Source: Xylanibacter ruminicola 23 (GTDB taxonomy: Bacteria > Bacteroidota > Bacteroidia > Bacteroidales > Bacteroidaceae). Taken from it: DNA of 32,000 nt. The position numbers and the translations under genes are program-made. Location: contig NC_014033.1 in the NCBI RefSeq assembly GCF_000025925.1, positions 780,001 to 812,000 of the forward strand, read 5' to 3'. How positions within the stretch are numbered: position 1 is the stretch's first letter; each line of letters starts with the position of its first letter. This document shows, piece after piece, positions 48 through 8,713 of this stretch. The notes below the pieces were generated by a model that worked only from the letters and a program-made list of their open reading frames with translations, was not told the DNA's origin and did not search any database.

Positions 48-437
48 ATGAAACAGATTGAAGTAGTTGCAGCGATAATACACGATGAGGCTGGTCGCAT
101 TTTTGCCACGCAGCGAGGATACGGCGATATGAAAGATGGATGGGAGTTTCCTGGGGGCAAAATGGAACCTGGCGAAACGCCCGAAGAATCGTTGAAACGT
201 GAAATTTGGGAAGAGCTGGAAACAAATATCACAGTGGAGCGGTTGGTTAAAACCGTAGAGTGGGATTATCCTAAGTTTCATTTAACTATGCATTGCTTCT
301 GGTGTAGTGTAGTGAGTGGAGCCCTGACGCTTAAAGAGCACGAGGCAGCCCGCTGGCTAACTATAGATCAACTTGATTGTGTAGATTGGTTACCAGCCGA
401 TTTGGTGGTAGTTGAGGACATCAAAAAAGAGGAATGA
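48..437 (+). CDS. NUDIX hydrolase (MutT-like nucleoside triphosphate pyrophosphohydrolase)
   Basis: 129 aa ORF with a clear Nudix box, GGKMEPGETPEESLKREIWEELE (GX5EX7REUXEEXGU pattern). The size is typical of MutT/NudG-like enzymes. Confidence 0.88.
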   Translation: MKQIEVVAAIIHDEAGRIFATQRGYGDMKDGWEFPGGKMEPGETPEESLKREIWEELETNITVERLVKTVEWDYPKFHLTMHCFWCSVVSGALTLKEHEAARWLTIDQLDCVDWLPADLVVVEDIKKEE

Positions 438-491
438 GCATCGCTGCTGATTCCTCTCACTATGATTATATAAATTATGAAAAAACTAATT
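423..491 (-). ncRNA. Candidate short minus-strand transcript (~70 nt) running from the promoter at 498-529 to the repeat hairpin/T-run
   Basis: A -33 TTTG (529-526), a 20-nt spacer and a -7 TACTTTTG (505-498) lie on the minus strand. Downstream are the hairpin at 458-431 and a T6 run. There is no ATG-initiated ORF of meaningful length. It is homologous to the unit at 6245-6421. Confidence 0.3.
431..457. repeat. Left copy of a perfect 27-bp direct repeat (GGAATGAGCATCGCTGCTGATTCCTCT), which is hairpin-forming
   Basis: Identical 27-mer at 6253-6279. It contains the inverted repeat GGAAT-G-AGCA/TGCT-G-ATTCC and overlaps the NUDIX stop codon (TGA 435-437). On the minus strand the hairpin is followed by TTTTTT (428-423). 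Confidence 0.95.
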
Positions 492-497
492 TGGCAG

Positions 498-529
498 CAA
501 AAGTACACTGAATTTTGCAAACCGCCAAA
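498..529 (-). promoter_or_regulatory. Minus-strand promoter (-33 TTTG / 20 nt / -7 TACTTTTG)
   Basis: Reverse complement reads TTTGgcggtttgcaaaattcagtgTACTTTTGctgcc, which has canonical Bacteroides spacing. It is about 70% identical by hand alignment to the promoter at 6390-6421. Confidence 0.5.
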
Positions 530-564
530 AAAATCTGTGTTTTATTTTTCAGGCAGCGAATAAT

Positions 565-608
565 AACAAAAAAATAGGTGAGCATCATAAAAATGCTCAC
601 CCTTTTTT
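565..608. terminator. Bidirectional intrinsic terminator hairpin
   Basis: GGTGAGCAT (577-585), a 7-nt loop and ATGCTCACC (593-601) form a perfect 9-bp stem. T6 follows on the plus strand (603-608) and T7 on the minus strand (complement of the A-run 568-574). Confidence 0.8.
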
Positions 609-753
609 GGGGTAGTGTCGATATGGTCTTGCCCTCTCGGGATTCTGCCCGGATAGTCAAAAAGCACCTTTGGCAAAAAAATAATGGAGTAGTGTCGATA
701 AAGTCTTGCTCCCTCGCGGGATTCTGCCCGGATAGCCAAAGGTTACCTTTTGA
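570..753 (-). ncRNA. Candidate ~180-nt non-coding RNA made of two tandem ~77-nt modules
   Basis: A minus-strand promoter at 760-791 is followed by two repeat units and then the strong terminator at 577-601 plus U-run. The only ATGs in the transcript lie in the terminator loop. Hairpins are preserved between the units despite sequence differences. Confidence 0.45.
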
Positions 754-760
754 CGTTGGC
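609..760. repeat. Tandem direct repeat, 2 units of ~77 bp with a ~45-bp highly conserved core
   Basis: Unit 1 (609-675) reads ggggtagtgtcgatatggtcttgccctctcgggattctgcccggatagtc... Unit 2 (686-760) reads ggagtagtgtcgataaagtcttgctccctcgcgggattctgcccggatagcc... The core GTAGTGTCGATA..GTCTTGC.CCCTC.CGGGATTCTGCCCGGATAG is shared with a few substitutions or indels. Confidence 0.92.
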
Positions 761-791
761 AAATATAGAGAGTTTTTTTGAAAGATCCAAA
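760..791 (-). promoter_or_regulatory. Minus-strand promoter (-33 TTTG / 20 nt / -7 TATATTTG) driving the tandem-repeat transcript
   Basis: Reverse complement of 760-791 reads TTTGgatctttcaaaaaaactctcTATATTTG, a textbook Bacteroides sigma-ABfr promoter geometry. Confidence 0.6.
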
Positions 792-931
792 TGTTTGGTA
801 CATTTTCTAACATAAACTGGCTCTTTTAACATTTTAAAACTAAATTGTGGCTCTATTTTAAATAGAATACTAATTAAAAATGGTGGCATGTTAATGCTAT
901 TATTTTATTTAAATTCTGGTCACAAAATTAG

Positions 932-939
932 TAACTTTG
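932..939 (+). promoter_or_regulatory. -7 promoter box (TAACTTTG) for the island operon
   Basis: TAACTTTGTACCC lies 24 nt upstream of the ATG at 963. The -33 element is weak. Confidence 0.45.
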
Positions 940-962
940 TACCCTATAAAAACAAGATACGA

Positions 963-1211
963 ATGGCTAACAGAAACGTTATTCTCTTACATCTCTTAGA
1001 GTCAGATACTTACGAGTTTTTTGGCTCTCCAGCCTCGCTTTTCGACAAGCACGAGGCCAATGAGTTGCTTATTGCTCAAACCAGTTTGAACAACCATTTC
1101 AGCAAAATGGCTGCTCAGGGTAAAGAGTTGGTATACAGAAACGCCTATTGCGAAATCCGCAAAGGCGAGATTTATGTTAAGCCATCAACACGAGGACGTA
1201 AAAAGTTTTAA
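963..1211 (+). CDS. Small (82 aa) hypothetical protein, possibly DNA-binding (controller- or excisionase-like HTH)
   Basis: The ORF-track frame 888-1211 is trimmed to Met26 (MANRNV...) because the -7 box at 932-939 lies inside the longer ORF. It has a basic C-terminus (STRGRKKF). The segment ELLIAQTSLNNHFSKMAAQGKEL loosely resembles HTH_17/excisionase-type helices. It is the first gene of an R-M operon. Confidence 0.45.
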   Translation: MANRNVILLHLLESDTYEFFGSPASLFDKHEANELLIAQTSLNNHFSKMAAQGKELVYRNAYCEIRKGEIYVKPSTRGRKKF

Positions 1212-1263
1212 ACTAATGTGTGTTTCCTTCCTAAAATGTCGTTTTCAATAATGATTTTATAAT

Positions 1264-2370
1264 ATGGCTAAAAAAGACACAAAAGAAGTAGCTTGTTTCG
1301 TTGAGGGTGTTTTACCAGGTTTATTTGGACAGAAATACTCAAGTCGAGACTATAGATATGAAGATTCATGGGGTAAGAATCAGTTTAATAGCTCATTCCC
1401 AGCCTCGTTAGTTGCTTATATGGGTAGTAAAGGAGTTAACCCTATTTATATTTGTACGAATAAAAAGAATGAAGTTGTTCATAAAACGATCAATACAACA
1501 GATCTGTTTGGCGTTAATCCTTTAGGTGAAGATGCATATTATAATTATGAGGCTGAATATTATCCCTATGAGCAATTTTATTATGCAGCTAAGAAAGAGA
1601 AAATAGATTTGGTAATGATAAATCGTAGTACAGAGGTGGCAGCTAGCGGCTTGGAAGTTAAATTAACTACCCTTCCTGATAATACTACGAAAGATTTGGA
1701 AGAATCTGAATATGGAAGTGAGATTGTTGTAAGGTCTCCTACTATTTTATTTTTGGCTTGCAGTATATGTTCATGCTATAACAGCGAGAAAGGTAAAAAT
1801 AGACTGCATTCGATTTTGAATACAATTGGATCCGAAATAAAAAATTGGAGTGAAATAAGACAGGTACTTCCTCATTATAAAGCTATTTGTAAAGCTATAC
1901 TTGATGTTTCCATAGATTTAAGTAACAAGCAGATTCCTTTAATTATTCAACCGATTTGGAAAACTGATAAGAAATTAAAGGATTTCGCAGATGATTGTCT
2001 TGATGTATTTGTTTGGTCAAATCTTTCTGTTATACAGATGTGTTTAAGAGAGACTAATGCGGATAACGATATTTCACGCAATCAGCGAACAATTATCTGG
2101 CTATATAAGATGCTATGGGACTTTAGTCTATATGGAAGTTTTAATTACACGGGTATCGTTAACGAGCTAGCATATAATTATAAAACAGACAAGGCTTTTT
2201 CTATTAGTGGAAAATTGACAAATCCATTGATGAGATGTCCAGAATTGACAAAGCCTAGAATAAGTAAATATGAAATTAAAAACATCATTTTGGGTGATGG
2301 TCAGAAGCTTCTCAGCCCAGAAAGAAGGTTTGATGCGTTTATTGTAAGTCATCCAGAGTTATTCAAATGA
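1264..2370 (+). CDS. Putative type II restriction endonuclease (PD-(D/E)xK-like), partner of the adjacent C5 methyltransferase
   Basis: 368 aa ORF whose stop overlaps the methyltransferase start (ATGA at 2367-2370). It has a candidate catalytic motif, IDLVM...(13 aa)...GLEVKLT (D...ExK). I recognise no other family. The AT-rich codon usage is shared with its neighbours. Confidence 0.55.
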   Translation: MAKKDTKEVACFVEGVLPGLFGQKYSSRDYRYEDSWGKNQFNSSFPASLVAYMGSKGVNPIYICTNKKNEVVHKTINTTDLFGVNPLGEDAYYNYEAEYYPYEQFYYAAKKEKIDLVMINRSTEVAASGLEVKLTTLPDNTTKDLEESEYGSEIVVRSPTILFLACSICSCYNSEKGKNRLHSILNTIGSEIKNWSEIRQVLPHYKAICKAILDVSIDLSNKQIPLIIQPIWKTDKKLKDFADDCLDVFVWSNLSVIQMCLRETNADNDISRNQRTIIWLYKMLWDFSLYGSFNYTGIVNELAYNYKTDKAFSISGKLTNPLMRCPELTKPRISKYEIKNIILGDGQKLLSPERRFDAFIVSHPELFK

Positions 2371-3713
2371 AAGTAGTTGATTTGTTTTGTGGGTGTGGTG
2401 GCCTAAGTCTTGGCTTCCAGAAAGCAGGATTTAATATTCTTGCTGCTTTTGATAATTGGGATGATGCGATAACGGTGTATCATGCTAATTTTAAGCATCC
2501 TGTAATAAAACAGGATTTGTCAAATGTAGATCAGACTGTAGAAAAAGTAAAAAAATATAAACCTGATATGATAATTGGTGGTCCTCCTTGTCAGGACTTT
2601 TCTTCAGCAGGAAAACGAGACGAAAATAATGGACGTGGTGATCTTACTATAAATTATGCTCAGGTTATTGCTGCTTTAAAACCAGATTGGTTTGTGATGG
2701 AGAATGTAGATCGTATCACCAAAACCGAAAAGTTGGTTGAAGCAAAAACTATTTTTAAGCAGTGTGGTTATGGATTAACGTATGCGATATTAAACGCAAG
2801 TCGTTGTGGTGCACCACAACGTCGCAAACGATTCATAATGATAGGTCATCTGGGCGAAGAAGACGGTTTTATGTCGAATATTCTTGAGTTACGCCAATCT
2901 GATAAAGAAATGACTGTTGCAGATTATTTTGGAAGTCAGCTAGATATTCAGTACTATTATCGCCATCCACGTAGTTATGCTCGAAGAGGTATTTTCAGTG
3001 TAAACGAGCCTAGTCCAACAATTCGTGGAGTCAATCGTCCTATGCCTGCCGGATATCAATTGCATAGTAATGATCCAGTAAAGTCATTAGAAGGAATACG
3101 CCCTCTAACAACATTGGAAAGAAGTATGATACAGACATTCCCCAAAGATTTTAGATTCCTTGGAAATAAGACTAATATGGAACAGATGATTGGCAATGCA
3201 GTTCCTGTTAATTTGGCAAGATACGTGGGTGAATGTATTATGGCTTATTTGGGCAATAATAATCCTGTTAATTACGAACAACTACGAGAGGATTATCCGG
3301 AAAAAATAGTGAATAATTCATCTGTCTCAATTAATCCTGAATTAAAAGTAGATAAGGAGAAGAACGTATTAATAAGTCTTGTGAAAAACGATAATGTAGA
3401 CCTGTTTTTAGACGGTTCTGCACGTATTTATTATACAGGGAAAAAGTTTCCATCAACAGTAGCTTTAAATAAGCTATACTATTTTATGCCATATGTTAAG
3501 CAAAAGGGTATTCGTGATATTTATCTAATAAAAATAGCCAGAGTTGGTTCTAAGCACGAGATACATCCTGATGCAGATGAAAATGATCTACGTTTGGTAT
3601 TCGAGATAGAAAAAATAGGTCAGCTATTTGATGACTACAAACCTGTAGAATTAAAAATTTGGCATACGTTTACGGATACGACTATTAAGAGTGTTTTGTC
3701 TAATAGATTATAG
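2367..3713 (+). CDS. DNA (cytosine-5)-methyltransferase with an extra ~150-aa C-terminal domain of unknown function
   Basis: Motif I is DLFCGCGGLSLGF, motif IV GGPPCQDFSSAG, motif VI ENV, motif VIII QRRKRFIMIG, motif IX TLERSMIQTFPKDFRF and motif X GNAVPVNLA. Residues from about 300 to 448 lie beyond motif X. Confidence 0.94.
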   Translation: MKVVDLFCGCGGLSLGFQKAGFNILAAFDNWDDAITVYHANFKHPVIKQDLSNVDQTVEKVKKYKPDMIIGGPPCQDFSSAGKRDENNGRGDLTINYAQVIAALKPDWFVMENVDRITKTEKLVEAKTIFKQCGYGLTYAILNASRCGAPQRRKRFIMIGHLGEEDGFMSNILELRQSDKEMTVADYFGSQLDIQYYYRHPRSYARRGIFSVNEPSPTIRGVNRPMPAGYQLHSNDPVKSLEGIRPLTTLERSMIQTFPKDFRFLGNKTNMEQMIGNAVPVNLARYVGECIMAYLGNNNPVNYEQLREDYPEKIVNNSSVSINPELKVDKEKNVLISLVKNDNVDLFLDGSARIYYTGKKFPSTVALNKLYYFMPYVKQKGIRDIYLIKIARVGSKHEIHPDADENDLRLVFEIEKIGQLFDDYKPVELKIWHTFTDTTIKSVLSNRL

Positions 3714-3719
3714 AAGCAG

Positions 3720-4328
3720 ATGGTAGCAAAGAGCAAGCAGCAAAGACTCAATGAAGAGATTGCATACGAACTTGACAAGTATCAGGTGATGCTCGAATAT
3801 GGCCGTATGTGTCTCGATGATGATAAAGCGATTCGTAAGAAGTATGCATGGATGAACTATGTCAAGAATGGATGTTTGAGTGGCATGGCTATAGATTTGA
3901 TTATGGCTGGTGCTACTAAACTGATTTCATCAGAGTTTTTTGGGGTATACCTACCATATTTTCTCATTGTCTTTTTCCTGGTGCTAATTATGTATATCTT
4001 CTTTTTTTTCATTCATAGGAAACAAATCGCCAAACTTATTGGCGCAGAAGAGAAGGCAACATTGAAGGAACTGCTTGATAATCTACGCTCCTATCTTCAC
4101 AAGTTAGGTGAGTGGATGAAGGAAGTTGATTGTCATATTGAACAGGAGAAAAGTGTCCTTGATATAATCGAGAAGGAATTGGCTGTTGCAAAGAGCCAGC
4201 AAGCTAAAGAGGTAAATAAACTCAGTGAGATATATGGCAATCTTGATGAAAAAATGGACGATAAAGCCCATCAAATGGCAGAAGAAAGATTAATACAGTA
4301 TAAACGATTTATTTACGATTATGAATAA
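3720..4328 (+). CDS. Two-TM membrane protein with a C-terminal coiled coil (function unknown, possible SLATT-like effector)
   Basis: 202 aa ORF starting 7 nt after the methyltransferase stop. Its hydrophobic segments are GCLSGMAIDLIMAGATKLI and FFGVYLPYFLIVFFLVLIMYIFFFFI. The C-terminal ~100 aa are heptad-rich and charged (KELLDNLRSYLHKLGEWMKEV...). Confidence 0.6.
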   Translation: MVAKSKQQRLNEEIAYELDKYQVMLEYGRMCLDDDKAIRKKYAWMNYVKNGCLSGMAIDLIMAGATKLISSEFFGVYLPYFLIVFFLVLIMYIFFFFIHRKQIAKLIGAEEKATLKELLDNLRSYLHKLGEWMKEVDCHIEQEKSVLDIIEKELAVAKSQQAKEVNKLSEIYGNLDEKMDDKAHQMAEERLIQYKRFIYDYE

Positions 4329-4511
4329 GAATACAAATACACGAGAGCAAGTACCGACACCTACAAATGTCATTACTCCCCAACCCTCGCCATCAGATTC
4401 TTCCTCAACTTCAAGTGGAGGTTCAAACTGAAGAGAGGTGTCAAGTCCGACAACGGTTTGAAGAGATGAGATCTAAGATTTTGGACAGTTGATATTTCAA
4501 AAACTGACAAT

Positions 4512-5339
4512 ATGGATAGACTGGGGTTTATAAAGTTCAATACTCGCTTTTCTACTGAAAAATCAGGAAAGGCGAGCAGTTATGCTCGTGCAATAGCAAT
4601 TTTGGATGATGTCTTGCAGCATCAAAACGAGATTGTTTTTAGTGGTAAGTCACTCTATGAAATATCCGATCCAGACGAGATTGAAAAGATTTTAGATTTT
4701 GTGAATCGAGAAGTTGGGAAATTGAAAAATGGTAAGCCAAACATCTTTGATTACGATAAAAATATACCCCAAAGTTATTTGCTGAAAAATTTTTGTTCAG
4801 CAGCATTGAATAGCTTGATAGAGTATTCTCAATTTGAGACTGCAGAAATTATTGTGGCAGAAGAAACGAATCCTCATCTGATTTCTACGAAATTAATGGC
4901 TCATTATGATATAACAAAGGAAGGTGAAGATGTAATATATGAAGCAAAACGTAGAAAGGGACAGAATTATTTTCGTTTCATGGTGCTTGACAACTATGGC
5001 TCGCGTTGTGCATTAACGGGTATTGATATACCAGAGTTATTGCTGGCTAGTCATATTATACCTTGGTCTGATAAAAAGCATAAAAGTGATCGACTTAATC
5101 CATGTAACGGTATCTGTTTGTCGGCTCTTTATGACAAGGCGTTTGATAAAGGACTGATTACGTTCAAAGACGATCTGACAGCATTATTCTCAAATAAGCT
5201 TGAAGCCAATGTTGGTAAGGAGTATTTTAAGCAATATTTCGAACCCATCAGGAATAAGAAACTTATAACTCCAAGGAAGTATCTTCCTAGTCCAGAATTC
5301 TTGGAATGGCATAGAGATTGTATTTTTAGTAAAGAATAA
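4512..5339 (+). CDS. HNH endonuclease (HNH_2 / COG3440-like, type IV-restriction-like) with an uncharacterised helical N-terminal domain
   Basis: The C-terminal region CALTGIDIPELLLASHIIPWSD...NPCNGICLSALYDKAFDKGLITF matches the HNH_2 signature (His...Asn...). The N-terminal ~150 aa show no motif I recognise. Confidence 0.8.
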   Translation: MDRLGFIKFNTRFSTEKSGKASSYARAIAILDDVLQHQNEIVFSGKSLYEISDPDEIEKILDFVNREVGKLKNGKPNIFDYDKNIPQSYLLKNFCSAALNSLIEYSQFETAEIIVAEETNPHLISTKLMAHYDITKEGEDVIYEAKRRKGQNYFRFMVLDNYGSRCALTGIDIPELLLASHIIPWSDKKHKSDRLNPCNGICLSALYDKAFDKGLITFKDDLTALFSNKLEANVGKEYFKQYFEPIRNKKLITPRKYLPSPEFLEWHRDCIFSKE

Positions 5340-5420
5340 ATTACGATCGGCTTAACGTTATAAAAGGTAAGACTATTTGTAAAGAAATCCCCAAACGCGT
5401 ACTATCCATGATATAATATA

Positions 5421-5468
5421 ATCTTCGCCTCTATACCAGAGCAGACAGTATAGGGGCGGAGATTTTTA
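5421..5468 (+). terminator. Intrinsic terminator after the HNH gene
   Basis: A long hairpin, ATCTTCGCCTCTATAC (5421-5436) / GTATAGGGGCGGAGAT (5448-5463), is followed by TTTTT. It also lies just downstream of the convergent ORF 5479-5736. Confidence 0.75.
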
Positions 5469-5478
5469 TATAGAGGTA

Positions 5479-5736
5479 TTAGCTTAAAAGAACTAACTTA
5501 TTCTGGCTTATATCATAAGCAATAGGATGGGCGAATGATATACTGTGACCATCGTGGACGCAGGTGGCGTCGATACCTCGACGTTGGAATTCATCCATTA
5601 GGGCTGCGTCGTGATAAGCGCGCATCGAAGTGAAACTTCGAAGATTTATCTGAGAATTGAATACGTTAACTAACTCTGCGATTTGCATATCGGCAAATTG
5701 CAATGCAAACTTGATGTAATAAATGTGCTGTTGCAT
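5479..5736 (-). CDS. Hypothetical protein (85 aa)
   Basis: An ORF with its own upstream -7 box (5860-5867, minus strand) and a downstream hairpin. No family recognised. Confidence 0.4.
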   Translation of the reverse strand: MQQHIYYIKFALQFADMQIAELVNVFNSQINLRSFTSMRAYHDAALMDEFQRRGIDATCVHDGHSISFAHPIAYDISQNKLVLLS

Positions 5737-5859
5737 AACTTAGGATAATTTTGAAGTGAATAATAATGTTGCTTCCACATCGTACCTTGGCCACCGTGAC
5801 ATCCTAATGCTCGGTTGGCGAGTCCGCCATAAAGGCGACTGCTCTTGATGTTTCGGGTG

Positions 5860-5867
5860 CAAAGATA
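5860..5867 (-). promoter_or_regulatory. -7 promoter box (TATCTTTG) about 120 nt upstream of ORF 5479-5736
   Basis: Reverse complement reads TATCTTTGCACCC, the same context as the strong promoters elsewhere in the window. Confidence 0.5.
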
Positions 5868-5930
5868 CAAAGTTTTCTGTGGAGAACCAAAAGAAATGAC
5901 TGTAAATTTTGTGGAGTGCGAAAATTGTGC

Positions 5931-5938
5931 TAATTTTG
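5931..5938 (+). promoter_or_regulatory. -7 promoter box (TAATTTTG) for ORF 5973-6242
   Basis: TAATTTTGTGGCG lies 35 nt upstream of the ATG at 5973 and is divergent from the 5860-5867 box. Confidence 0.45.
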
Positions 5939-5972
5939 TGGCGAAATAGAAACAATTAATTCTTGACAGAAT

Positions 5973-6242
5973 ATGATAGCTTGTCTTATATGGGTTCTTT
6001 TGTATGCCTTCATAATATGGATGCTGGCTGCCATTACTTCATGGTGGGCTGTGATAATTATGCATATAGGAGCTGTAATATTTCTACTAATATACAAAGG
6101 TGACGCTATTTTTAGAGGAAGTAATCCACCAGAAAATCCGGATGATAAAACTTGTGACGATGAAAGTTATCGAGCTGCTCGTGAAGAACGGGATGCATAT
6201 GATGACTACATTGCCTCTATAGATATGGATAAAGATAGATGA
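5973..6242 (+). CDS. Small membrane protein (2 TM) with an acidic C-terminal tail
   Basis: 89 aa ORF with the hydrophobic segments CLIWVLLYAFIIWMLAAI and WWAVIIMHIGAVIFLLIY, followed by a D/E-rich tail. No family recognised. Confidence 0.45.
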   Translation: MIACLIWVLLYAFIIWMLAAITSWWAVIIMHIGAVIFLLIYKGDAIFRGSNPPENPDDKTCDDESYRAAREERDAYDDYIASIDMDKDR

Positions 6243-6244
6243 AA

Positions 6245-6383
6245 CAAAAAGGGGAATGAGCATCGCTGCTGATTCCTCTGTGATAATTATAACTAATAAA
6301 ACCCAATTCTTTCTCGCATCACTGCGAAAATAGAATGAACATAATCATTAAAATGAATTTCATAATCATTCATTTAACAATCA
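6245..6383 (-). ncRNA. Candidate ~135-nt minus-strand small transcript (may encode a 26-aa peptide, 6293-6373)
   Basis: The promoter at 6390-6421 (minus strand) is paired with a terminator, the repeat hairpin 6279-6253 plus a T-run. The internal ORF is MNDYEIHFNDYVHSIFAVMRERIGFY. Both the promoter and the 3-prime end are homologous to the unit at 423-529. Confidence 0.35.
6253..6279. repeat. Right copy of the perfect 27-bp direct repeat / terminator hairpin
   Basis: Identical to 431-457. Degenerate similarity extends on both sides (CAAAAAG.GGAATGA upstream, TGAT(A)ATTATA downstream). On the minus strand it is followed by CCTTTTTGTTT. Confidence 0.95.
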
Positions 6384-6389
6384 ACGTGG

Positions 6390-6421
6390 CAAAGGTAATA
6401 AGAATTTGGAAAACGACCAAA
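6390..6421 (-). promoter_or_regulatory. Minus-strand promoter (-33 TTTG / 20 nt / -7 TACCTTTG)
   Basis: Reverse complement reads TTTGgtcgttttccaaattcttatTACCTTTGccacg. Confidence 0.5.
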
Positions 6422-6448
6422 AAAAACGCCAGTAAAAAATTACTGGCG
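6419..6448 (-). terminator. Intrinsic terminator of the 6440-6859 gene
   Basis: CGCCAGTA (6427-6434) / TACTGGCG (6441-6448) form a hairpin overlapping the stop codon. It is followed on the minus strand by T8. Confidence 0.8.
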
Positions 6449-6859
6449 GCGGAATTCGATGGTCTTGGGCAGTTTTTGCCATTTACCTTTGAAGGGCACC
6501 TTGAGGGCGCTACCTGATTCTTGCTTGAGGATGAATACTGAATCGCCCTTGGCGGTGAGGGTGGCGGTGAGATCCTCGCTGCCGTAATCGTTGATCATCT
6601 GCAGCGTGGCCTTGTGGCCCTTTACCTCGGCATCGGTGATGACCCAGGCAAACGAGTTGAAACGCTTACTGAGATAGCCGGGTACCTGGCCAAACAAATC
6701 CTGCCCGGGAACGGTAACATCTTGTTGGTAAAAATTAATACGCATCACAATATCAAGTTCCTTATTTATAAGGTACGCGCGAAAGGGGCCTTGGGTGTTC
6801 TGCGCACTGGCCGTAATACTGGCCAAACACAGCAGGGCTGAAACTATTAACTTGTTCAT
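6440..6859 (-). CDS. Secreted hypothetical protein (signal peptide)
   Basis: 139 aa ORF with the N-terminus MNKLIVSALLCLASITASAQ, typical of a Sec signal. A -7 box TATCTTTG lies at 6889-6896 (minus strand). GC content and codon usage look like the core genome. Confidence 0.7.
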   Translation of the reverse strand: MNKLIVSALLCLASITASAQNTQGPFRAYLINKELDIVMRINFYQQDVTVPGQDLFGQVPGYLSKRFNSFAWVITDAEVKGHKATLQMINDYGSEDLTATLTAKGDSVFILKQESGSALKVPFKGKWQKLPKTIEFRRQ

Positions 6860-7000: not shown

Positions 7001-8713
7001 ATGGCAAAGGAACGATTTACACCTGATTTTATTTTTGAGTCGAGTTGGGAGGTTTGCAACAAGGTGGGCGGTATCTATACCGTACTTTCGACACGTGCTA
7101 AAACTTTGCAACAGGTTCTGAAAGACAAAATCATATTTATTGGTCCTGATTTCTGGAAAGAGCAGGAGAGTCCTTACTTTAGGGAGGCCAACAGCTTGCT
7201 GGCCGAGTGGCAGTGGGCTGCGAAAGAGCAGGGCCTGAAGGTTAGGGTGGGCCGATGGACTGTGCCTGGTGAACCAATCGCTATTCTGGTTGATTTTAAT
7301 CCGTATTTTGAGAAGAAAAACGAAATATATGGCTGGTTGTGGGAACACTACCAGGTGGATTCGTTGCATGCCTATGGCGACTATGATGAGGCATCGATGT
7401 TCTCGTATGCAGCAGCTCTCGTAGTAGAGAGTTTCTACAAGCACAGCCTGAAGCCCGAACAGAAGGTGATATACCACGCTAACGAGTGGATGTGCGGACT
7501 GGGACTGCTCTACCTGAACAACAAGCTGCCACAGATTGGTACGGTGTTTACGACCCATGCTACGAGCATTGGCCGATCGATTGCGGGTAACCAGAAGCCG
7601 CTGTACGACTACCTGTTTGCCTATAACGGCGACCAGATGGCGGGCGAGCTGAACATGCAGAGCAAACACAGTATTGAGAAGCAGACTGCCCACTATGCCG
7701 ACTGCTTTACCACAGTGAGCGACATTACGGCTAAGGAGTGCGTGGAGCTGCTGGATAAGCCGGTGGACGTGGTGCTTCCAAATGGTTTTGATAATAGTTT
7801 TGTGCCCGCCACAGCGCAGGCTTTTGCCCGCAAGCGTAAGGCCGCGCGCAAAAAAATGCTGCAGGTGGCTAATGCACTGCTGGGCGAGGAACTGGACGAC
7901 GACACGCTGCTGATTTCGACTTCGGGACGATACGAGTTCCGCAATAAGGGTATCGACGTGTTTGTTGAGGCTATGAACCGACTGCTGCGCGACCGCGACC
8001 TGAAAAAGAAGGTGGTGGCATTTATCGAGGTGCCCGGTTGGGTAGGAGAGCCACGCAAAGACTTACAAGAGAGACTTGCTACATTAAACATTAAACATGA
8101 AACATTAAACATTAAGCAAGCCACCAACAGCGAACAGCCATCATTTAACACTCCTCTTGAGGTGCCGATGGTGACGCACTGGCTGCACAACATGAGTCAC
8201 GACAACGTGCTGAGCATGCTGAAATACTACGATATGCACAACCGTAAGGATGAGAACGTGAAGGTGATTTTCCTGCCTTGCTATCTGGACGGTAATGATG
8301 GTATCGTGAACATGACCTACTACGATGTGGTGCTGGGCAACGACCTGTGCATCTACCCATCGTACTACGAGCCCTGGGGTTACACCCCACTTGAGGCAAT
8401 AGCCTTTAAGGTGCCTTGTATCACTACCGACCTGGCTGGATTCGGACTGTGGGCCAACACGGTGTTCGGTCACGACGGACAGCTGGAGGATGGTGTGAAG
8501 GTGATTCACCGCACGGATTACAACTATAGCGAAGTGGCCGATAATATCAAAGATACGGTGGCTGAGTTCTCGAACATGACTAAAAAGCAGATTGAGACTT
8601 GCCGCAAGAATGCTGAAGCCCTCTCGGAGAAGGCTCTCTGGACTCACTTTATCGAGTACTACTACGAAGCGTATGATATCGCGCTGCGCAAGGCGCAAAT
8701 GCGAGTACATTAA
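7001..8713 (+). CDS. Glycogen synthase, GT3 (eukaryote-like) family
   Basis: 570 aa ORF. The N-terminus FESSWEVCNKVGGIYTVLSTRA matches the conserved GT3 glycogen synthase start (SWEV.NKVGGIYTV). It is adjacent to an alpha-glucan phosphorylase. Confidence 0.9.
   Translation: MAKERFTPDFIFESSWEVCNKVGGIYTVLSTRAKTLQQVLKDKIIFIGPDFWKEQESPYFREANSLLAEWQWAAKEQGLKVRVGRWTVPGEPIAILVDFNPYFEKKNEIYGWLWEHYQVDSLHAYGDYDEASMFSYAAALVVESFYKHSLKPEQKVIYHANEWMCGLGLLYLNNKLPQIGTVFTTHATSIGRSIAGNQKPLYDYLFAYNGDQMAGELNMQSKHSIEKQTAHYADCFTTVSDITAKECVELLDKPVDVVLPNGFDNSFVPATAQAFARKRKAARKKMLQVANALLGEELDDDTLLISTSGRYEFRNKGIDVFVEAMNRLLRDRDLKKKVVAFIEVPGWVGEPRKDLQERLATLNIKHETLNIKQATNSEQPSFNTPLEVPMVTHWLHNMSHDNVLSMLKYYDMHNRKDENVKVIFLPCYLDGNDGIVNMTYYDVVLGNDLCIYPSYYEPWGYTPLEAIAFKVPCITTDLAGFGLWANTVFGHDGQLEDGVKVIHRTDYNYSEVADNIKDTVAEFSNMTKKQIETCRKNAEALSEKALWTHFIEYYYEAYDIALRKAQMRVH
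8081..8115. repeat. Five tandem heptamers (ACATTAA x2, ACATGAA, ACATTAA x2) in frame inside the glycogen synthase CDS
   Basis: Translated as TLNIKHETLNIK. 26 nt (8090-8115) are identical to the intergenic 14658-14683. Confidence 0.9.

Follow-up and report, generated by a model that had tools for sequence, protein, structure and literature searches.

Positions 431-6279 of the 32,000-nucleotide (nt) stretch of Xylanibacter ruminicola 23 analysed here (contig NC_014033.1, positions 780,001 to 812,000; hereafter the window) hold a set of AT-rich genes bracketed by two exact copies of a 27-mer, GGAATGAGCATCGCTGCTGATTCCTCT. This interval is a filled slot, the second of two, in a strain-variable defence hotspot of X. 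ruminicola, and not a one-off insertion; the 27-mer is the core of an invariant 24-nt hairpin (hairpin 1) that marks most slot boundaries, whether the slots are full or empty. Our reading of the locus as a whole, to which we give a probability of roughly two in three, is that of a hotspot without a recombinase of its own, in which the hairpin would serve as the terminator of a small RNA and the cargo would be exchanged by homologous recombination.

An earlier note on this DNA had described the direct repeat with its left copy lying over a NUDIX stop codon, an AT-rich interior between flanks of about 50% guanine plus cytosine (GC), a cargo of restriction-modification and nuclease genes, and the lack of an integrase, transposase or relaxase, all of which hold on inspection. 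The two exact copies (431-457 and 6253-6279, both on the plus strand) have no third counterpart in the window, nor does the window contain any further match at up to three mismatches (chance expectation 0); the likeness of the two copies reaches 34 nt at 97% identity (424-457 versus 6246-6279), and the TGA stop codon of the NUDIX gene (435-437) falls within the left one. The interior (458-6252) has a GC content of 36.0%, compared with 50.0% for the backbone (6860-32000), and the correlation of its tetranucleotide profile with that of the backbone is r = 0.22, against r = 0.80-0.93 for equally sized backbone windows. The cargo genes were identified as a HindVP-family endonuclease, a C5 cytosine methyltransferase and an HNH_2 nuclease. 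Neither the window nor the 10 kb upstream of it showed an integrase, a transposase or a relaxase (Pfam, NCBIfam and PADLOC on the island proteins, with the rest of the window checked too), and ARAGORN found no transfer RNA (tRNA) or transfer-messenger RNA (tmRNA) gene in the window. These data support the view of 458-6252 as an accessory, compositionally foreign defence islet. The earlier note's picture of an accessory islet without a recombinase thus stands, whereas its proposals of a duplicated attachment site, a single element, exchange inside the repeat and a NUDIX relic are not supported.

A strain-variable defence hotspot in X. ruminicola

The NUDIX protein and the 139-amino-acid (139-aa) protein on either side of the interval recur with identical sequences on contig BPTT01000001.1 of assembly GCA_019973335.1, and the identical 139-aa protein is encoded on nine other contigs, all with the same right flank (glycogen synthase, GlgP, PRPP synthetase and so on). 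Related strains hold different genes at the same spot, one of the outcomes that the earlier note had envisaged, and 458-6252 is not syntenic among relatives. At least 10 cargo types lie beside the 139-aa gene, one of them supplied by D31d, the species-representative genome. They consist of HindVP, Dcm and HNH_2 (the window and, among the loci fetched for comparison, L013); Eco57I-like, Dcm and AAA_5 with large proteins and HNH_2 (L002-4); an SLFN-type helicase with UvrD and RQC (L012) or with small genes (L016, L017); AIPR, Dcm, AAA_5 and Vsr (L015); DUF6339, Dcm, DUF2357/PDDEXK_7 and Vsr (L014); Mrr, Dcm, AAA_5 and Vsr (L018); MutH-like, Dcm, DUF4062 and Vsr (L019); NERD with an SNF2/PLD helicase-nuclease (L020); and DUF6339, Dcm, HNH_2 and Vsr (D31d, L025). 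The GC fraction of all cargos is 0.32-0.41, versus 0.46-0.56 for the flanks. The flanks are conserved, with the 139-aa gene, glycogen synthase and GlgP on the right and, where contigs extend that far, a 612-aa gene on the left. Since so many cargos stand beside an identical 139-aa flank, the locus is a hypervariable defence hotspot. No recombinase was found among the neighbours in about 20 variant loci (precomputed Pfam), and no tyrosine recombinase within 10 kb on either side.

The layout of the hotspot runs from the 612-aa gene through a linker, NUDIX-A, slot 1, NUDIX-B (the NUDIX gene of the window), slot 2 and another linker to the 139-aa gene and then the glycogen genes, and window positions 431-6279 are slot 2 in its filled state. 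The empty site that the earlier note had suggested looking for exists in L016, L017 and L020, where NUDIX-B and one hairpin are joined straight to the right flank and the cargo sits on the other side of this NUDIX gene. We rejected a phage or plasmid origin, as the hairpin has 0 matches in viral contigs, the island has no relatives among these contigs, and comparisons with plasmids and phages returned only trivial patches.

Copies of hairpin 1 number four to five per genome, lie within about 20 kb and share a single orientation within each locus. When a single genome from each of 185,579 species was scanned for the exact 24-nt core, it turned up only in X. ruminicola Ga6B6, D31d, Prevotella sp. 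P6B1 and a 2.9-kb contig of a Succinivibrio metagenome-assembled genome, which is probably mis-binned; all five copies of D31d lie at 762-783 kb of one contig. A genome-wide element of the repetitive extragenic palindromic (REP) type, which the earlier note had named as a finding that would speak against an island, was likewise rejected, the exact 24-mer being confined to assemblies of the X. ruminicola group and clustered there (the Succinivibrio contig aside). A BLAST comparison of the window with the fetched loci uncovered further copies of the ~34-nt motif just upstream of the window in L001: one (174-205) follows a GH3 gene that is unrelated, another (7755-7788) separates the 612-aa gene from a second NUDIX gene, and the third (8376-8410), with a 1-nt loop insertion, lies at the end of that second NUDIX gene. 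Over 29 distinct contexts, identity amounts to 97% in the core, 44-48% in the adjacent 24 nt and 28-33% at a distance of 25-72 nt, which is the random level for AT-rich DNA; the contrast between core and flanks is in part inflated by ascertainment, as the copies were collected by searching for the core. Copies reached through protein look-ups are almost all exact too.

Two side observations concern the extent of the hotspot. About 9.8 kb to the left of the window start (L001 164-2362), a truncated linker with hairpin 1 and an outward promoter, and with no leftward promoter, follows the GH3 gene and precedes an AT-rich 680-aa gene (0.38-0.40 GC, no family), an arrangement found also in D31d (L023) and Ga6B6 (L024); this GH3-side site, at a distance of 7.6 kb from the main hotspot, may represent an additional accessory slot. 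Public metagenome contigs carrying the NUDIX or the 139-aa gene are mostly shorter than 2 kb; assemblies seem to break at the hotspot, as expected of a repeated hypervariable region, and its diversity is probably under-sampled.

The linker as a predicted leftward transcription unit

When hairpin 1 and the 215 nt downstream of it were aligned in 30 contexts, a composite linker emerged in which hairpin 1 is followed by a variable spacer, a second hairpin (hairpin 2, TCGCATCACTGCGA), another variable spacer, a TTTG-N20-TAnnTTTG block on the minus strand and a promoter block on the plus strand, the latter standing just ahead of the next gene. Promoters of Bacteroidetes have TTTG / TAnnTTTG as their consensus. 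In its strict form (TTTG-N18-22-TAnnTTTG) this motif occurs nine times in the window, versus 0.45 expected, and one occurrence (5860-5891, minus strand) lies exactly upstream of a SAM riboswitch (5737-5856), thus providing an internal positive control. Two others, at 498-529 and 6390-6421, both on the minus strand, aim into the two 27-mer copies, and a strict motif is present within 300 nt upstream and on the same strand at 55 of 60 hairpin copies. Counted from where the -7 box ends to a point 10 nt beyond hairpin 1, the 35 unique units predicted in this way are 76-159 nt long. On the minus strand, 34 of 35 contexts have six or more T residues among the 10 nt that follow the hairpin, versus 11 of 35 on the NUDIX strand. 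Read as minus-strand RNA, the loops are GCGA in hairpin 1 and GUGA in hairpin 2, with GUGA, GCGA and GUAA as variants, such that the GNRA form is always retained; the substitutions in the stem of hairpin 1 (U5C with A20G, A7G, C17U) all keep pairing, and closing pairs covary, in few independent events. Six sequence-divergent variants all fold into a 5' hairpin, hairpin 2 with an extended base, and hairpin 1 with its U-tract (z from -1.7 to -3.8).

Both boundaries of slot 2 in the window carry such a unit on the minus strand. The left one, type a (422-529), has its promoter, TTTG-N20-TACTTTTG, at 498-529 and the left copy of hairpin 1 (24-nt core 431-454, with the U-tract 424-457), which contains the left 27-mer, as its predicted intrinsic terminator; the predicted transcript of ~70 nt (~492 to 422) has no hairpin 2 and folds at -17 kcal/mol (z -3.4). 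The right one is a complete unit of type b (6243-6421), with the promoter at 6390-6421, hairpin 2 at 6314-6327 and the hairpin 1 core at 6253-6276 followed by its U-tract and including the right 27-mer; its predicted transcript measures ~140 nt and begins with a 5' hairpin, and the linker promoter is directly preceded by the terminator of the 139-aa gene (6427-6448). The minus strand of the linkers has no conserved reading frame, and a small protein was rejected as the product, the 26-aa open reading frame (ORF) of the type b linker being missing from the type d linker. A covariance model built from 19 linker members detects in the window only 6243-6389 (minus strand, 109.7 bits) and 421-556 (minus strand, 64.4 bits); it finds five members in L001, all inside 16 kb, none at 7-32 kb of the window, and nothing better than E ~0.03 in lineages with other core flanks or in the housekeeping parts of the loci searched. 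Rfam offers no match for the linker RNA at E ≤ 1, and the hairpin sequence has no match in the literature searched.

Most likely, hairpin 1 and its U-tract constitute the Rho-independent terminator of a short leftward transcript of ~70-150 nt: minimum-free-energy structures show a stable stem-loop directly before the U-tract on the strand predicted to be transcribed, and a promoter of its own lies at a suitable distance upstream, as it should for a small RNA. By the order of its elements, the linker would close one module and, via the outward promoter, start the next. A deeper covariation record was sought in other species and not obtained, as orthologues of the 139-aa gene that are no more than 90% identical stand beside another neighbour, with no hairpin next to them, and NUDIX homologues at ~80% identity in other lineages lack hairpin 1, with only L082 and L083 sharing the hairpin 2 core. 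In these two loci (L082 ~8601-8709, L083 ~8566-8674, both minus strand), a leftward promoter is followed after ~82 nt by the hairpin UCGGGGUCGCAGUGAUGCGGCCCCGA, which is built on a CGCAGUGAUGCG core. This hairpin converges on NUDIX-orf64 and has its GNRA core in common with hairpin 2, with only a weak score under the covariance model (19.7 bits).

Further observations bear on the ends of the genes that meet the linker. NUDIX (window 435-437) and Vsr genes (L015 10600-10606; L014, L019) both terminate within hairpin 1, with the same last residues (...EDIKK-E/G-E) and the stop TGA in GGAATGA, their Lys-Lys codons being the terminator U-tract on the opposite strand. The notion that the Vsr C-terminus is a NUDIX relic was dismissed, since Vsr genes of other lineages likewise end in ...AAEDI. 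Beyond the type a unit lies a canonical bidirectional intrinsic terminator (570-608; A-run, 9-11-bp stem, T-run), the probable end of the NUDIX mRNA, and beyond it two copies of a ~78-nt repeat (608-671 and 685-750) with a leftward promoter at 760-791; this segment (608-791, minus strand) forms the tail of a repeated NUDIX module (20-791). A 190-nt transcript over both repeats, from the 760-791 promoter to the bidirectional terminator, is predicted at 562-791 on the minus strand (z -4.7). One or two copies of the repeat accompany most NUDIX modules; they have no Rfam match, Tandem Repeats Finder is silent on them, and a tRNA-type attachment site or tRNA relic was rejected, as ARAGORN finds no tRNA in them.

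Exchange of cargo and competing explanations

Contrary to the single discrete element of the earlier note, the interval is a mosaic of segments found in different other cargos. The NUDIX module (20-791) is 83-91% identical to other NUDIX modules; homology on the left with the Eco57I-type locus L002 runs to 560, within the outward promoter, and that with the MutH-type cargo of L019 (orf107, 96%) to 1195; the HindVP restriction-modification genes, orf202 and HNH_2 (1212-5422) belong to this cargo type only (the window and L013); the riboswitch-orf85 unit and orf89 (5423-6183) are shared with L002-4, and orf89 (5906-6239) with L014, L018 and L074. Homology to other cargos therefore stops at 560, 1195, 5423 and 5906, not at the hairpin. 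In L013, which has no slot 1, the NUDIX gene is of the A type to ~392 and of the B type from 430 on, and the crossover lies at 393-429, a 37-nt tract identical in NUDIX-A and NUDIX-B and to the left of the hairpin centre. Modules A and B are ~95% identical in the linker (430-607), compared with ~80% in the NUDIX genes, making the linker the best substrate for homologous exchange. The earlier note's second idea, recombination between duplicated terminator modules, comes close to these data, except that the one resolvable crossover is outside the centre of the repeat.

Two right linkers have suffered natural deletions, L034 (after 317) and L073 (after 211), both of which start in the T-run past the terminator of the 139-aa gene and end, respectively, in the T-run beside hairpin 1 and inside hairpin 1; in L018 (7293-7298), the Vsr gene abuts the 139-aa gene directly. 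It follows from the deletions and the L018 junction that the linker beside the 139-aa gene is dispensable. The opposite extreme, a minimal cassette of one small gene flanked by two full linkers, is found in L074 (254-928), which reads NUDIX, hairpin 1, type d linker, orf89, hairpin 1, type b linker and 139-aa gene. The left and right flank types assort around the hairpin; the L013 crossover, however, is off-centre and other breakpoints lie far from any hairpin. The breakpoints between strains are scattered and mosaic, a pattern that favours homologous or microhomology-driven recombination among co-resident strains over a site-specific reaction.

In the model that we propose, a short leftward transcript with two GNRA-capped hairpins would be ended by hairpin 1 and its U-tract, and its Bacteroidetes-type promoter would stand back to back with a rightward promoter for the next genes, such that each linker would end or insulate one module and open the next. 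Cargo would be gained, lost and reshuffled by homologous recombination following DNA uptake, with crossovers falling in the conserved linkers, the repeated NUDIX modules, the core flanks and genes common to several cargos; site-specific integration would not be required. Several points weigh against this model. Its promoter and terminator are motif and structure predictions, and a generic terminator scan passes over hairpin 1 because of an internal C.C mismatch. Covariation is thin, given few independent substitutions and an element that is missing from relatives at 90% identity or less. Just one crossover could be mapped, its informative site (430) may be a polymorphism, and metagenome contigs are possibly chimeric. 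An identity of 24-34 bp is, moreover, short for RecA-dependent exchange, which leaves the first entry of new cargo between linkers unexplained. Finally, all 24 nt are fixed, mismatch and loop included, beyond the structural needs of a mere terminator, and this exactness hints at sequence-specific recognition. The invariant hairpin could conceivably be a dedicated junction signal, recognised sequence-specifically as DNA or RNA by a host factor encoded elsewhere, with the linker as a plug-and-play piece that brings a small RNA and an outward promoter; we regard this as unlikely. Were it true, the locus would be a defence-gene cassette array without a recombinase of its own, a Bacteroidota analogue of the integron. 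On this view, the predicted small RNAs that converge on NUDIX (PDC-S07) may also serve as antisense regulators of the gene.

A rival explanation is that the hairpin is a DNA recombination site with a 12-6-12 structure (AGAGGAATGAGC / ATCGCT / GCTGATTCCTCT), the core for a tyrosine recombinase, Xer-like or other, that is encoded elsewhere in the genome. Cassettes would enter and leave as circles at the hairpin copies, in the manner of integron attC sites or of the dif-like modules of Acinetobacter plasmids. Such a site would account for a 24-nt core that is invariant down to its asymmetric centre and arm mismatch between unrelated flanks, a degree of conservation exceeding what a terminator needs, as well as for the direct orientation of all copies, the independent assortment of left and right flank types and the lack of a recombinase in cis. 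It would also suit the orf89 mini-cassette between two copies in L074, the order hairpin-linker-orf89 in L014 versus orf89-hairpin-linker in the window, which resembles a circular permutation, and the paired change T5C and A20G in L076, which fits a symmetric binding site equally. Nevertheless, we doubt this explanation, as the strand asymmetry of the T-runs (34/35 versus 11/35) and the one-strand upstream promoter (55/60) are features of a transcript, and the GNRA loops and wobble-type changes are sensible only in minus-strand RNA. In addition, the L013 crossover lies to the left of 430, beyond the central region, many breakpoints between strains are distant from any hairpin, the deletion variants end in T-runs or in a hairpin arm instead of the centre, and no recombinase candidate was found.

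A less active role is assigned to the repeat if it is a passive by-product, the NUDIX gene having been duplicated together with its terminator and the right copy being what remains of a decayed NUDIX gene; the hairpin would then be an ordinary bidirectional terminator without a small RNA, its copies owing their identity to recent duplication or gene conversion. NUDIX modules are indeed duplicated (20-791, at 83-91% identity to the others), L012, L016, L017 and L020 carry a full NUDIX gene where the window has the hairpin alone, and the hairpin overlaps the NUDIX stop codon. Against this, some copies have no NUDIX history, following GH3 or Vsr genes or orf89 instead; the step from 97% identity in the core to 28-33% at 25-72 nt is not explained by conversion tracts; most copies come with a unit that runs from promoter to terminator and with a second conserved GNRA hairpin; and NUDIX has its own canonical terminator at 570-608. 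The likeness to the left of the right copy, a CAAAAAG stretch in which the earlier note had seen a relic of the NUDIX 3' end, is an A-run only: it corresponds to the U-tract of the other strand, precedes nearly every hairpin copy and is found also at copies that are never beside a NUDIX gene. We therefore think this explanation improbable. Least credible, and largely refuted, is a classical integrative island, with 458-6252 inserted whole by a since-lost integrase that duplicated a 27-bp attB, as in the attL/attR-style reading of the earlier note. A direct repeat does bracket DNA of foreign composition, and other strains do have a junction resembling an empty site. The putative attachment sequence, however, is present at four to five or more boundaries per genome, among them empty junctions and the unrelated GH3 gene; furthermore, the ~20 variant loci hold no integrase, a tRNA or tmRNA target is missing from the window, and the interval, a mosaic whose pieces recur in other cargos, lacks relatives in plasmids, phages and viral contigs.

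Gene content and relation to known systems

From left to right, the slot begins with NUDIX-B at its left edge (48-437, plus strand, 129 aa, MutT/NudG-like), whose stop codon is inside hairpin 1. Behind the NUDIX module stands orf107 (888-1211, plus strand), which belongs to no family, is probably 82 aa long from a later ATG, and is 96% identical to an ORF in the L019 cargo (MutH-like and Dcm). It is followed on the same strand by the HindVP-family type II restriction endonuclease (1264-2370; Pfam PF09519, 6e-151; PADLOC REase_II) and the C5 cytosine DNA methyltransferase (2367-3713; Pfam PF00145; TIGR00675; PADLOC MTase_II, 3.5e-144), whose genes share a 4-nt overlap. A PF09519 endonuclease with an adjacent methyltransferase defines the type II HindVP system, and like other members of this family the pair has its endonuclease translationally coupled to the C5 methyltransferase; by these sequence matches, the restriction-modification cargo is in itself ordinary. 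Next come orf202 (3720-4328, plus strand), with one hydrophobic transmembrane-like segment, and the 275-aa HNH_2 nuclease (4512-5339, plus strand; Pfam PF13391; PADLOC HNH, 2.5e-48), the C-terminal part of which is similar to modification-dependent restriction enzymes, with an NCBIfam PT-DNA restriction endonuclease match below cutoff. A leftward unit (5479-5891) comprising a promoter (5860-5891), the riboswitch (5737-5856) and orf85 (5479-5736) is set against a rightward one (5908-6242) with a promoter (5908-5938) and orf89 (5973-6242), a module common to L002-4, L014, L018 and L074; the hydrophobic N-terminal region of orf89 probably spans the membrane. The right core flank (6427-6859, minus strand) consists of orf139 (6440-6859), the 139-aa gene, with a signal-peptide-like N-terminus and its own canonical terminator (6427-6448). 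Two ORFs called as genes in several public assemblies, 475-813 (minus strand, 112 aa) and 6335-6517 (plus strand, 60 aa), cross terminators, repeats and the predicted small-RNA gene, and are probably spurious annotation artefacts.

The riboswitch matches the full S-adenosylmethionine (SAM) model SAM-I/IV (RF01725) with 45.0 bits over model positions 1-99 (gathering cutoff 41.1; 5737-5856, minus strand), has its own promoter and ends one base ahead of the orf85 start codon, which it is predicted to control. Riboswitches scoring 44.5-48.8 bits precede orf85 homologues in five further loci (L002 15336-15455; L089/L091 ~5884-6001; L092 5881-6001; L094 279-397). In two other lineages an orf85 homologue stands at the edge of a defence cluster, preceded by the riboswitch in all four loci tested, such that the pair is found at defence-cluster edges in at least three lineages. 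There are more than 1,000 clusters of orf85 homologues, all of ~85 aa and all without a family; orf85 itself has no Pfam, NCBIfam or PADLOC family, no sequence match in the PDB and, despite a model predicted with confidence (pLDDT 82.7), which comprises three helices and a beta-hairpin, no fold relative there. A second 85-aa ORF, in slot 1, was considered as its paralogue and shows no similarity. It is tempting to speculate that the orf85 unit links SAM supply to defence, for instance by sensing SAM depletion by phage SAM lyases; the literature searched contains nothing that links SAM-I/IV riboswitches to defence.

NUDIX-B matches Pfam NUDIX and NUDIX_4, the NCBIfam MutT model TIGR00586 (93.8 bits, just under the cutoff of 97.9), NudG-type PRK10546 (5e-22) and, over its full length, the PADLOC phage-defence candidate PDC-S07 (3.6e-49), and it has the Nudix box GX5EX7REUXEE in the form GKMEPGETPEESLKREIWEE. 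Rumen metagenomes contain thousands of its close relatives, the majority on short contigs. NUDIX homologues of 80-83% identity are encoded in three other Prevotella-type lineages whose core flanks are unrelated (L078-L081, L082-L085, L086-L088), in each case clustered with a C5 methyltransferase and Vsr, and in two of the three also with an AAA_5 and DUF2357/PDDEXK_7 pair, the third having an AAA_5 gene in one locus. Escherichia coli NudG prefers 5-methyl-dCTP. This analogy and the company of C5 methylase and Vsr suggest that PDC-S07-type NUDIX genes would belong with Vsr to a 5-methylcytosine housekeeping set more than they would represent a stand-alone defence; in the literature searched we found no experimental report on PDC-S07 and nothing on NUDIX together with Vsr and Dcm.

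The closest known kind of locus is the core defence hotspot of Pseudomonas aeruginosa. Its representatives cDHS1 and cDHS2 occupy a fixed site between conserved marker genes and hold a variable defence cargo, with GC below that of the genome and no hallmarks of mobile elements (Johnson et al. 2023, PMC10250203). According to the authors' proposal, such loci are transferred through homologous recombination via the conserved flanks; they also state that the gain and loss of cargo in hotspots without mobile-element genes is an open question (PMC10250203). The present locus shares with cDHS the conserved flanks, the variable low-GC defence cargo, the absence of mobile-element scars and the proposed homologous exchange, as well as a non-coding RNA at a flank and NUDIX genes nearby. 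In contrast to cDHS, for which such linkers have not been described, its slots are split by a repeated linker that combines an invariant hairpin, a leftward unit and an outward-facing promoter and is in many cases fused to a NUDIX gene, itself repeated; the locus is found in a narrow Bacteroidota lineage. Integron arrays resemble it in their co-oriented cassettes, each followed by a hairpin-forming repeat, their strain-variable content and their single-gene cassettes (compare L074). They differ in that the present locus has no intI beside the array (the nearest 10 kb on either side being free of tyrosine recombinases in every locus), repeats one invariant 24-mer, has modules that bring their own promoters, and shows breakpoints that are not confined to the repeat. 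Integron attC sites are variable and 57-141 bp long. With respect to Rfam, the island riboswitch is a regular SAM-I/IV member, and the linker RNA matches no family.

Taken together, what sets this locus apart is the internal architecture, that is, slots delimited by the hairpin of an undescribed, predicted small transcription unit which is repeated along with NUDIX modules. The locus offers a concrete handle on the turnover of defence hotspots, in that short, invariant and countable linkers stand at the slot boundaries, and many natural variants are at hand in rumen metagenomes, with cultured strains existing as well. Three further leads arise from it: a predicted and as yet undescribed family of small RNAs; a NUDIX defence candidate which accompanies C5 methylases and Vsr and may clean up 5-methyl-dCTP; and a SAM riboswitch which, with its conserved 85-aa protein at the edges of defence islands, could tie S-adenosylmethionine levels to defence.

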